Part shown: piece after piece, positions 9,250 through 10,890 of the stretch
How the letters are laid out: the number at the start of each line of letters is the position of its first letter
Position numbering within the stretch: position 1 is the stretch's first letter
From: Acidobacteriota bacterium
Lineage (GTDB): Bacteria > Acidobacteriota > Vicinamibacteria > Vicinamibacterales > UBA2999
NCBI GenBank assembly: GCA_046726375.1
Contig: JBKPAJ010000062.1
Location: 2,498-66,497, forward strand
Direction of reading: 5' to 3'
Length of the DNA: 64,000 bases
Program-made: the position numbers and the translations under genes
The notes under the pieces: model-generated
The model's database searches: none
Seen by the model: the letters and a program-made list of their open reading frames with translations, nothing else
Told to the model about the DNA's origin: nothing

Positions 9250-9328
9250 AGTTACAAGTTCAAAGTTCAAAGTTCAAAGTGAAGAACGCTCCAACTAACT
9301 TTGAACTTTGAACTTTGAACTTGTAACT
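9250..9328. repeat. AT-rich heptamer-periodic palindrome, (GTTCAAA)n / (TTTGAAC)n, copy A
   Basis: AGTTACAAGTTCAAAGTTCAAAGTTCAAAGT (9250-9280) pairs perfectly with ACTTTGAACTTTGAACTTTGAACTTGTAACT (9298-9328), with a 17-nt loop. It lies 1 nt from the gatB stop codon. Confidence 0.9.
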
Positions 9329-9329
9329 G

Positions 9330-10778
9330 TTACGTCCCCAGCTCGCGTTTAAGCAGCTCGTTGACGACCTTGGGATTCGCCTTCCCCTTCGACGCCTTCA
9401 TCACGTGCCCGACGAGAAACCCGAAGGCGTTGTTGCGACCCTTGCGAAACTGCGCGACGGCATCGGGATTGGCCGCAATCGCCTCGCGCACGATGCCGGC
9501 GAGCGCGTCCTCGTCTCCGATCTGCGCCAGGCCCTCGGTCTGGACGATCTCATCCGCCGAGCGCCCGGATTCGTACATTTTCGCGAACACGTCCTTCGCA
9601 ACCGTGCTGCTGATCGTGGCCCGGTCGACTATCCGGATCAGCCCGGCAAGGGCGTCGGGCGTGAGCGGCACCTGATCGATCGTGATCCCGCGTTCCTTCA
9701 GCGTTCGCAACAGCTCGCCCATGATCCAGTTGCTTGCCGCTTTCGGATTCTGCGACGCGCGCCCGGTCTGCTCGAAGTAATCCGCGAGGCGGCGATTTTG
9801 CGTAAGCAGGTTGGCGTCGTATTCGGGCAGCGCGTATTCCGCGACAAACCGCCTCATACGCGCTTCAGGCAATTCAGGAAGCGAGGCGGCCACGGCTTCG
9901 CGTCGTCTGGCATCGACCACGAGCGGCGGCAGATCTGGTTCGGGGAAATACCGGTAATCGTGTGCCTCTTCCTTGCTGCGCATCGAAAACGTGCGCCCCT
10001 GCGCCGAATCGAACAGCCGCGTTTCCTGCACTACGCGCCCACCGTGCTCGACGACATCGATTTGCCGTTCGATCTCGTACTCGAGCGCCTTCTGCAGATA
10101 GCGGAACGAGTTGACGTTCTTGACCTCGGCCTTGGTCCCCAGCCTGGTCTCGCCTTGCCGCCGGATCGAGACGTTGGCGTCGCAGCGCAGACTGCCCTCC
10201 TCCATGCTGCCGTCGTTGACGCCGAGCCATACGACAATCTGTCGCAGCTTTTCGAAAAACGTCGCGGCTTCTTCGGCGGACCGAAGATTCGGTTCGCTCA
10301 CGATTTCGATCAACGGCACGCCGGCGCGATTGAAATCGAGATAGGTCCGTGAAGCGGAATCCGGAAACCCCTCGTGCAGCGACTTGCCGGCGTCCTCTTC
10401 CATGTGGATGCGCGTGAGCCGCACAAACTTCGTCTTGCCGGATCCGTTGACAGGTATCTCCAGGCCTCCGCCCGTCGCGAGTGGCTGTTCGTACTGCGAG
10501 ATCTGATAGCCCTTGGGGAGGTCGGGATAGAAGTAGTTCTTGCGCGCGAAAACCGAACGCTCGTGAATTTCGCAGCCGAGGGCGAGCGCGGTCCGCACCG
10601 CGTAATCGACGGCAGCGCGATTGAGCACAGGAAGCGCGCCCGGAAAGCCGAGGCAGACCGGGCACACATGAGTGTTGGGCGGCGCGCCGAATGTGGTCGA
10701 ACAGCCGCAGAAGATCTTGGTCGCGGTCAGGAGCTGCGCATGGATCTCGAGGCCGATGACTGCTTCGTAGGAAGACAT
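9330..10778 (-). CDS. gatB: Asp-tRNA(Asn)/Glu-tRNA(Gln) amidotransferase subunit B
   Basis: MSSYEAVIGLEIHAQL...FCGC...PGALPVLN..., typical GatB. The start is set at the ATG (complement of 10776-10778). The longer track start (TTG, MNFELTT) lies inside the repeat. Confidence 0.93.
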   Translation of the reverse strand: MSSYEAVIGLEIHAQLLTATKIFCGCSTTFGAPPNTHVCPVCLGFPGALPVLNRAAVDYAVRTALALGCEIHERSVFARKNYFYPDLPKGYQISQYEQPLATGGGLEIPVNGSGKTKFVRLTRIHMEEDAGKSLHEGFPDSASRTYLDFNRAGVPLIEIVSEPNLRSAEEAATFFEKLRQIVVWLGVNDGSMEEGSLRCDANVSIRRQGETRLGTKAEVKNVNSFRYLQKALEYEIERQIDVVEHGGRVVQETRLFDSAQGRTFSMRSKEEAHDYRYFPEPDLPPLVVDARRREAVAASLPELPEARMRRFVAEYALPEYDANLLTQNRRLADYFEQTGRASQNPKAASNWIMGELLRTLKERGITIDQVPLTPDALAGLIRIVDRATISSTVAKDVFAKMYESGRSADEIVQTEGLAQIGDEDALAGIVREAIAANPDAVAQFRKGRNNAFGFLVGHVMKASKGKANPKVVNELLKRELGT

Positions 10779-10784
10779 CGTGGT

Positions 10785-10890
10785 CAGTTCAAAGTTCAAA
10801 GTTCAAAGTTCAAAGTGAGTTTTAAAGTTCAAATTGGGAACTCAAAAACTTCTCAACTAACTTTGAACTTTGAACTTTGAACTTGTAACT
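10785..10890. repeat. AT-rich heptamer-periodic palindrome, (GTTCAAA)n, copy B
   Basis: The left arm is CAGTTCAAAGTTCAAAGTTCAAAGTTCAAAGT. The right end, CAACTAACTTTGAACTTTGAACTTTGAACTTGTAACT, is identical to copy A. It touches the pckA stop codon (10890-10892). Confidence 0.9.

Follow-up and report, generated by a model that had tools for sequence, protein, structure and literature searches.

The question raised by this locus is what kind of element fills the spaces on both sides of gatB on contig JBKPAJ010000062.1 of an Acidobacteriota bacterium (assembly GCA_046726375.1). The window, that is, the whole stretch analyzed here, comprises 64,000 nucleotides (positions 2,498 to 66,497 of the contig, forward strand). 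In it, gatB is bracketed by two AT-rich palindromes composed of tandem 7-nt units: c1 (9250..9328, minus strand), located between the gatB stop and the start of a Ser/Thr kinase gene, and c2 (10786..10890, minus strand), located between the pckA stop and the gatB ATG at 10778. The gene order on the minus strand is thus pckA, c2, gatB, c1 and the kinase gene. Based on the results presented below, c1 and c2 are copies of a young repeat family. We consider with moderate confidence that the palindromes are dispersed, lineage-specific foldback repeats with tandem AGTTCAA arms, tolerated passengers that tune the expression of their neighbours, and not terminators or promoters. This confidence concerns the identity of the elements, and any particular effect is proposed with less.

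On the transcribed (minus) strand, c1 reads AGTTACA-(AGTTCAA)3-AGT, followed by a 17-nt loop (TAGTTGGAGCGTTCTTC) and ACT-(TTGAACT)3-TGTAACT. Its arms (9250-9280 and 9298-9328) have 31 nt each, lie 17 nt apart and are 100% complementary, exactly as the first-pass annotation, made from the letters of the window, had described them. The c2 element begins on the same strand with AGTTACA-(AGTTCAA)3-AGTTAGTTG, as c1 does, and continues with a longer centre and the 3′ arm (TTTGAAC)4. It had been reported as a second copy with four left units, a longer centre and an identical right end; four perfect AGTTCAA units were indeed found on its left side, and its 37-nt right end (CAACTAACTTTGAACTTTGAACTTTGAACTTGTAACT) is identical to positions 9292-9328 of c1, with 10786 as the start of the element. 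The perfect arms are 25-31 nt in length, the terminal AGTTACA/TGTAACT pair is present in c1, and Tandem Repeats Finder (TRF) detected a period of 7 with 3.7-4.7 copies per arm. The GC content of c1 and c2 (0.33 and 0.30, respectively, versus 0.636 for the window) agrees with the description of AT-rich elements in a GC-rich genome. The proposal that the 7-nt register runs on through the loop has to be abandoned for c1, where the identity at lag 7 within the loop was 0.20, and it is weak for the c2 centre (0.40 at lag 7 versus 0.50 at lag 8).

These repeats go far beyond chance, as judged from the counts of a 17-mer (2.4 units), which gave 16 window matches with at most two mismatches versus 0.00 in 100 shuffles, and from the z-scores of the predicted RNA folds (-52.2 kcal/mol and z = -9.6 for c1; -52.9 kcal/mol and z = -8.7 for c2). 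As for the position, c1 begins 1 nt past the gatB TAA (9330-9332), leaving 18 nt between its end and the ATG at 9231; the last base of c2 (10890) is common to the TAA of pckA, and the element ends 7 nt before the gatB ATG. The copies therefore touch the upstream stop and nearly reach the next start, as had been claimed, with the genes being on the minus strand.

In addition, a third, degenerate copy, which had escaped the first-pass annotation, was found between the genes for a membrane-fusion protein and an AcrB-like protein (c3, 19242..19380, plus strand). It consists of (AGTTCAA)2.6-AGTTAGTTGGGG, a centre of decayed AGTT-type units and then TTGAACTTTGAACTGTAACT, with a predicted fold of -49.5 kcal/mol (z = -4.4). 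Its first base is the A in the TGA stop of the gene for the membrane-fusion protein, and it ends 15 nt before the AcrB-like ATG (19396), which is preceded by a GGAG ribosome-binding site. Read in the sense of transcription, c1, c2 and c3 all start with (AGTTCAA)n-AGTTAGTTG and finish with (TTGAACT)n, with TGTAACT or AGTTACA as terminal variants, and all three occupy stop-to-start junctions between same-strand genes.

The comparison with related genomes indicates how these junctions came to be filled. The best gatB matches were Acidobacteriota metagenome-assembled genomes (MAGs), one match of 81% identity being named Vicinamibacterales. An identity matrix was calculated from the pckA and gatB coding DNA of the fetched orthologous loci, and it gave the order ((W,(L121,L122)),L123), where W is the window, with L124 and L127 as outgroups. 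The coding identity was 92.9% between W and L121/L122 and 97.3% between L121 and L122, with 88% for L123 and about 81% for the outgroups. In the outgroups L124, L125 and L127, the pckA-gatB gap is 2 nt (TAAtcGTG) and the site is empty; no AT-rich heptad arrays were found in the 21 kb of each outgroup examined. In all four species of the clade (W, L121, L122 and L123), the same junction is filled by an element of 84-111 nt, and the unit numbers and centres of these elements vary among the four species. Two species of the clade have orthologues of c3 at the same junction, of 124 nt (L294) and 171 nt (L297), while the outgroups L124 and L127 have unrelated spacers there. In L127, the stop is at the same codon and is followed by a 32-nt spacer, the ribosome-binding part of which is still recognisable after c3 in the window. 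The c1 element and the kinase gene occur together only in W, L121 and L122, both being absent from L123 and the outgroups; the kinase gene is itself an insertion between gatB and a DUF3108 gene that is not there in L123, L124 and L127. Slippage cannot build up some 100 nt from a 2-nt spacer, and the elements therefore arrived as insertions. The aligned loci show their insertion into 0-2-nt or short gene junctions in the ancestor of a small Vicinamibacterales-like clade of Acidobacteriota.

The elements at different loci are clearly related to each other. An alignment of five copies from two loci covers AGTTAC(A/G)-(AGTTCAA)3-AGTT(A)AGTTG...TTC-AC(TTTGAAC)n with a variable centre, and the terminal motif AGTTACAAGTTCAA is restricted to this clade. 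Although they are located at different loci, c1 of the window and the pckA-gatB element of L122 share 92.5% identity, and therefore the copies move or convert one another. Between L121 and L122 (2.7% diverged), entire units are present or absent, and the gatB-kinase element has its centre (about 45 nt) inverted, which is the signature of exchange between inverted arms. These alignments show that the copies evolve as entire units are gained or lost, as the centre is replaced and as it is inverted via arm exchange. At the strain level, the window and JBKPHN01 (0.1% divergence) exhibited no change over 20 kb, and a neighbouring heptad hairpin was identical across ten samples. The loci are therefore not phase-variable, and the same comparisons show that the elements are stable among strains. 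In the related MAG JBKPDL01, at least three contigs had a match.

The first-pass annotation had allowed for elements unique to these loci and not conserved in relatives; instead, their position is conserved across the clade, and such elements are widespread elsewhere. The pattern (AGTTCAA)3AGT was found in more than 119 contigs of species-representative genomes, with matches in Acidobacteriota (many of them Pyrinomonadaceae), Verrucomicrobiota, Planctomycetota, Bacteroidota, candidate phyla radiation (CPR) bacteria and cyanobacteria. Period 7 was dominant among the tandem repeats in about 1 Mb of AGTTCAA loci (355 arrays), which also held about 170 other 7-8-nt units, and the genomes carrying AGTTCAA therefore belong to the known class rich in heptamer simple sequence repeats (SSRs). 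In viral contigs, the AGTTCAA pattern occurred at 28 loci, compared with 1, 2 and 1 for three control heptamers of the same composition (a 14-28-fold excess); this abundance is of the same order as that of the TAACTGA repeat (91 loci). The latter served as a positive comparison, as ACTGATA, chosen as a control heptamer, is a rotation of TAACTGA. ATCAGTA, also chosen as a control and likewise turned into a positive comparison, was arrayed in 34 viral contigs, many of which held more than one array, on both strands, and is apparently another abundant heptamer family.

All 20 foldback elements examined in other genomes had the order AGTTCAA...TTGAACT, and none had the reverse order (p = 2e-6). 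At least 14 of 21 foldbacks adjoin the stop of a long open reading frame (ORF), at a distance of no more than 20 nt, and in 7-9 cases the element occupies a stop-to-start junction in the manner of the window copies. Furthermore, in-frame AGTTCAA insertions, translated as VQSSKFKV, were found in leuS at no fewer than three different positions; they occur in L001, L020, L070 and L078, which comprise Pyrinomonadaceae and a Verrucomicrobiae MAG, with products of the type ...FKVQSSKFKV...NLE.... Among the 119 loci listed, no recurrent protein family was seen beside the arrays, the commonest one being present at 8 loci and not being a transposase. A metagenome scan with the family core GTTCAAAGTTCAAAGTTAGTTG retrieved only two low-GC loci, which are not members, one of them being a coding repeat, and a BLAST search of c1 against plasmids gave no match, possibly owing to the low-complexity filter.

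Single arrays showed no orientation bias relative to gene starts (11 versus 15), so that an AU-rich, S1-type enhancer upstream of starts was rejected (15 versus 11). The apparent orientation of single arrays relative to stops (25 versus 5) was discarded as an artefact, because the TTGAACT sense has TGA in all three frames; 23 ORFs end inside an array. Two further ideas were given up: an origin of single arrays as the 5′ arms of hairpins that have decayed found no support (the better pairing lay downstream in 57 cases and upstream in 50; p = 0.59), and a fixed orientation of the loop with respect to transcription was rejected, as L121 and L122 have the centre in opposite orientations, with L024 being ambiguous.

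Given the empty outgroup sites, the filled clade sites and the core shared by two loci, we read the palindromes as inserted, dispersed foldback repeats. They would be a form of the bacterial heptameric simple sequence repeats that makes hairpins, with a behaviour resembling that of REP/REPIN or MITE elements. Among the roles listed by the first-pass annotation, the non-autonomous mobile element has the best support, to which the in-frame leuS insertions elsewhere also contribute. Growth in place would do without transposition: slippage of the 7-nt unit would form the arrays, intramolecular template switching would form the palindrome, and convergence with ectopic gene conversion would account for the likeness between loci. 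Heptamers are the most over-represented class of long SSRs in bacteria, and slippage has been proposed for them (Mrazek 2007, as cited in PMC4679880 and PMC4692102). The whole-unit differences between orthologues, the recombination between arms revealed by the centre inversion, the lack of a visible target-site duplication and the numerous other 7-8-nt units in the same genomes would all fit this scenario. However, the ancestral TAAtcGTG junction offers no seed for slippage, and the first arrival at a 2-nt spacer needs the insertion of a block. Moreover, a non-repetitive core and terminal motifs are common to different loci, and the AGTTCAA unit recurs with the same polarity across phyla, so we hold growth in place to be unlikely. 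An assembly or chimera artefact at a low-complexity palindrome is extremely improbable. It is true that contig L015 starts (1-190) with an AGTTCAA hairpin whose unique flanks are also inverted copies, which is probably the foldback artefact typical of a contig end, but the elements of the window are internal, the c1/c2 region is identical in an independent NCBI assembly (99.9% identity), and the orthologues in three other species come from different samples and have intact flanking genes. It is also doubtful, and rather strongly so, that the arrays are primarily binding sites for a DNA- or RNA-binding protein, a nuclease or a recombinase reading a GTTC/GAAC core, with a regulatory or structural role to which the hairpin would be secondary. 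GTTC/GAAC is found in six of the seven intergenic unit families of the clade (periods of 7, 8 and 12-13 nt; chance about 0.05-0.1 per family), AGTTCAA is strongly preferred over heptamers of the same composition, direct 12-mer repeats with GGAAC occur upstream of dksA, and S1, Csp and CsrA have been proposed as binders of TAACTGA repeats (PMC4679880). Against this, the common descent of the units explains the shared core: in L034, an AGTTCAA array runs directly into AGTTCGGA octads, and together with the GTTC core this is read as descent with drift of unit and period. A 7-bp period is also unfit for one face of the DNA helix, the arrays have no orientation bias relative to starts, the bias relative to stops is an artefact, and no candidate protein was identified. 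Two known site types were compared as well. The LexA box is GTTC-N7-GTTC, and the spacing here, N3 or N10, does not fit it. In integrons, attC sites have the core sites RYYYAAC...GTTRRRY and stand in a cassette array next to the integrase; the ends of the elements, AGTTACA...TGTAACT or AGTTCAA...TTGAACT, do not fit GTTRRRY, and the flanking genes are conserved syntenic core genes.

A role in transcription termination deserves separate consideration, since terminators and attenuators had been listed among the possible functions. A scan of 9000-11200 gave no terminator-like site, and the stems (29% GC) are not followed by a T-run, the sequences being UUUCCCAUAG after c1 and GACCACGAUG after c2. 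No sigma-70-like site was detected by the scan around gatB, and no -10 element was seen near its ATG. Taken together with the ancestral 2-nt junction, the lack of a promoter-like site at gatB makes expression by read-through from pckA the simplest reading. Such read-through is incompatible with a strong terminator, so that a terminator in the strong sense is unlikely, as the U-tract is missing and the downstream gene, gatB, lacks a promoter-like site; judging from these features, the hairpin before gatB is probably read through. A milder variant is an intra-operon attenuator or U-tract-less terminator, in which the AU-rich 3′ arm would weaken the RNA:DNA hybrid and a partial stop would determine how much gatB is made relative to pckA, and kinase relative to gatB. 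In its favour, the stems are both long and stable, and in all 20 AGTTCAA hairpins the A-rich arm comes first (5′) and the U-rich arm last (3′), whichever strand is read, which is the layout of a bidirectional terminator; in other genomes, some copies are located between convergent genes. We nevertheless consider this variant quite unlikely: besides the missing T-run and the negative terminator scan, gatB begins only 7 nt downstream with no promoter-like site, e4 and e5, which belong to other unit families in the window, have the opposite A/U polarity, and most copies fill stop-to-start junctions.

Returning to the reading of the palindromes as inserted foldback repeats, we suggest the following scheme for their tolerance within operons. 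The elements would be transcribed together with the flanking genes as part of the operon, and the RNA would fold into an AU-rich hairpin of 25-31 bp. The foot of this hairpin would bring the upstream stop and the next start to about 7-25 unpaired nt, instead of 80-140, and RNA polymerase and ribosomes would pass through the element. On terminating at the flush stop, a ribosome would open the stem at its foot and free the region of the next start, so that coupling would be kept or modulated. The expression of the neighbours may thus be tuned via coupling or via effects of RNase III or exonucleases. It is worth noting that repetitive extragenic palindromic (REP) sequences located no more than 15 nt from a stop codon are reported to reduce translation of the gene upstream (Liang 2015, as cited in PMC12306157), and therefore some cost or tuning by the elements is likely.

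Several points weigh against this reading. No target-site duplication was visible at any of the three heptad copies, the comparison of c2 and c3 with the empty sites of L124 and L127 revealing no duplicated flank, and no transposase or REP-associated tyrosine transposase (RAYT) was present among the 20 window proteins scanned with Pfam. The copy number is known at the scale of the window, which contains three heptad copies within 64 kb. The flush position at the stop codon is shared by an unrelated MITE-like (miniature inverted-repeat transposable element) repeat at 652-769, and part of the contact with stop codons is therefore probably survivorship in a compact genome. A selected RNA structure finds no evidence in covariation: among 29 pairs none was compensatory, but the stem is invariant in the five aligned copies, which makes covariation uninformative. 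The transcribed strand was predicted to fold better in 17 of 23 elements (summed energies of -1117 versus -1060 kcal/mol), yet this asymmetry is modest and the cases are not independent, so the fold predictions hint only weakly at a constraint at the RNA level. Finally, co-transcription, read-through and coupling at the elements are steps that we infer.

Intergenic heptamer repeats, REP sequences and REPINs (REP doublets forming hairpins), MITEs and inverted heptamer pairs in Xanthomonas are already known, and the elements described here share features with each of them. Like REP sequences, bacterial interspersed mosaic elements (BIMEs) and REPINs, they are palindromic repeats in transcribed extragenic space, between operon genes or just past stops; REPINs are likewise hairpins of about 100 nt formed by two inverted units, with post-transcriptional effects (PMC12306157). 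However, the arms of the present elements consist of tandem 7-nt units, the number of which varies, they are AT-rich although the genome is GC-rich, and the phylum is Acidobacteriota and not Proteobacteria. In addition, there is no 5′ tetranucleotide of the GTAG type, the flanks of the copies share no such motif, and no RAYT gene, which in REP systems is flanked by the repeats, was seen within the 64 kb. REP sequences and REPINs reach tens to hundreds per genome around one consensus; the 64 kb of the window hold three copies of the present element. With the heptameric SSRs, namely the cyanobacterial short tandemly repeated repetitive (STRR) sequences, TAACTGA and GGGAATC, the elements have in common the 7-nt period, three or more tandem copies, the intergenic location near gene ends and a unit number that varies between related genomes. 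TAACTGA repeats are known from Beggiatoaceae, Cyanobacteria and Bacteroidetes and GGGAATC repeats from Xanthomonas, where some arrays form inverted pairs (PMC4692102). AGTTCAA is not among the units of these three groups, and a complete foldback is standard in the clade; its polarity is fixed, its terminal units are conserved and its core is common to the copies, which characterizes a discrete inserted element and not a simple array. The comparison with STRR sequences made in the first-pass annotation is thus apt for the class of repeat, while the unit, the taxon and the foldback architecture differ.

Terminal inverted repeats, small size, no coding capacity and presence/absence polymorphism between relatives are features shared with MITEs; the differences are that no target-site duplication is visible and that the inverted repeats are themselves tandem arrays. 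The repeat at 652-769, unlike the heptad copies, looks like a classical MITE with TA...TA flanks. The Rickettsia palindromic elements (RPEs; Ogata et al. 2000), which belong with the MITEs, reportedly insert in frame into genes, as the AGTTCAA elements within leuS do. Eukaryotic foldback (FB) transposons have long inverted ends of short tandem subrepeats and a variable centre, with frequent rearrangement and inversion of the centre. They are eukaryotic and kilobase-sized, and with no evidence of homology the likeness is an architectural analogy only. No description of an AGTTCAA-unit repeat family was found in the literature searched or in Rfam, where a search with the whole window gave a single tRNA as the sole match and none for the elements. 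Likewise, we found no described family that combines fixed-polarity AGTTCAA foldback arms with insertion into operon junctions and genes in several phyla.

If this reading is correct, soil Acidobacteriota, bacteria that are abundant, barely cultured and almost unstudied as to gene regulation, carry an undescribed repeat family, the elements of which enter 0-2-nt operon junctions beside housekeeping genes (pckA-gatB) without killing the cell. They would provide natural experiments on the tolerance of translational coupling and operon transcription to secondary structure, as well as on the transition between simple-sequence repeats and mobile elements of the palindromic type. Practical aspects arise as well: assemblers break or fold back at the arrays, and the fast turnover of units makes the arrays good species-level markers.

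Gene annotation is affected as well. The gene calls of the window are those of near-identical NCBI contigs. Upstream of c2, pckA (10890..12488, minus strand; Pfam PEPCK_ATP, E = 4.6e-222) encodes a PEP carboxykinase, and its stop adjoins the element. The gatB gene (9330..10778, minus strand; Pfam GatB_N and GatB_Yqey) truly starts at ATG 10778 and not at TTG 10799, as the N-terminus MSSYE aligns with those of relatives. The longest ORF (9330-10799, TTG start, 489 aa) reaches 21 nt into c2, compared with 482 aa for the ATG form. The gatB genes of several relatives are annotated in databases at 489 aa too, and gene callers therefore appear to extend the ORF into the array. Downstream of c1, the Ser/Thr protein kinase gene (6505..9231, minus strand; 908 aa; Pfam Pkinase) has a conserved TAGAATCT 6 nt upstream of its ATG, which could be the -10 box of a leaderless transcript. 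By a hand check, TTGAAC was rejected as a -35 box, its spacing to the TAGAAT upstream of the kinase gene being 14 or 21 nt.

Apart from the AGTTCAA copies, the window contains three other hairpin fillers at junctions between same-strand genes. A foldback of 8-nt units, e5 (59361..59487, minus strand), consists of AGTTCCGA / AGTTCGGA and then GAACCTCG. Two nucleotides separate it from the preceding stop, that of a gene for a 49-aa membrane protein (59490-59639), and it ends 22 nt before the start (59338) of a Ysc84-domain gene. Its core is GTTC...GAAC, as in the heptads, and from this likeness e5 is a probable member of the same superfamily. Going further, the GTTC-core foldback arrays might form a self-propagating class of DNA across phyla, including AGTTCAA heptads and 8- and 12-13-nt derivatives, with fixed polarity (GTTC arm 5′); such arrays would be moved by a core-recognising machinery targeting gene ends and kept because the hairpin bridges stop and start and preserves coupling over about 100 nt. 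This is a conjecture to which we assign a low probability.

A hairpin of TCAGCNN / NNGCTGA heptads (23106-23201, 96 nt) fills the whole gap from the stop of a 164-aa gene to the folK ATG, and its orthologue in the sister species L131 is two units shorter (81 nt). The non-repetitive inverted repeat at 652-769 has perfect arms of 27 nt, a 64-nt centre and TA...TA flanks; one arm takes in the TAA of the upstream gene, and the repeat ends 6 nt before the start of the RNase R gene. Since L124 has 0 nt and L127 has 14 nt at this junction, the repeat looks like a classical MITE insertion. The repeat carries AGTTACA, a motif present seven times in the window versus 0.97 expected.

Further repeats were noted in the window and its relatives. 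About five direct copies of a 12-mer (GGGAACGCAGAT, minus strand) are located at 24179-24234, in the 198-nt gap upstream of dksA, and could be operator-like or another GTTC-core repeat. Hairpins of 280-330 nt with 12-13-nt units (CACG..GGTTCCT, then GGAACC..CGTG) occur in the efflux operon of the sister species L294 (1175-1500) and L297 (1222-1500), where they separate the outer-membrane gene from the membrane-fusion gene; the window has only 68 nt at that place (17591-17658). In L131, a heptad hairpin AAGAACG...CGTTCTT, with the GAAC arm first, lies at 5457-5560 between the convergent folK and AcrB-like genes, and only remnants of it (AGAACCAAGAACG) are present in the window at 22540-22613. 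Two tandem 19-mers (GTTTCACACCTCACATTAT) were also observed at 57070-57108, in the gap upstream of a sigma-54 activator gene.

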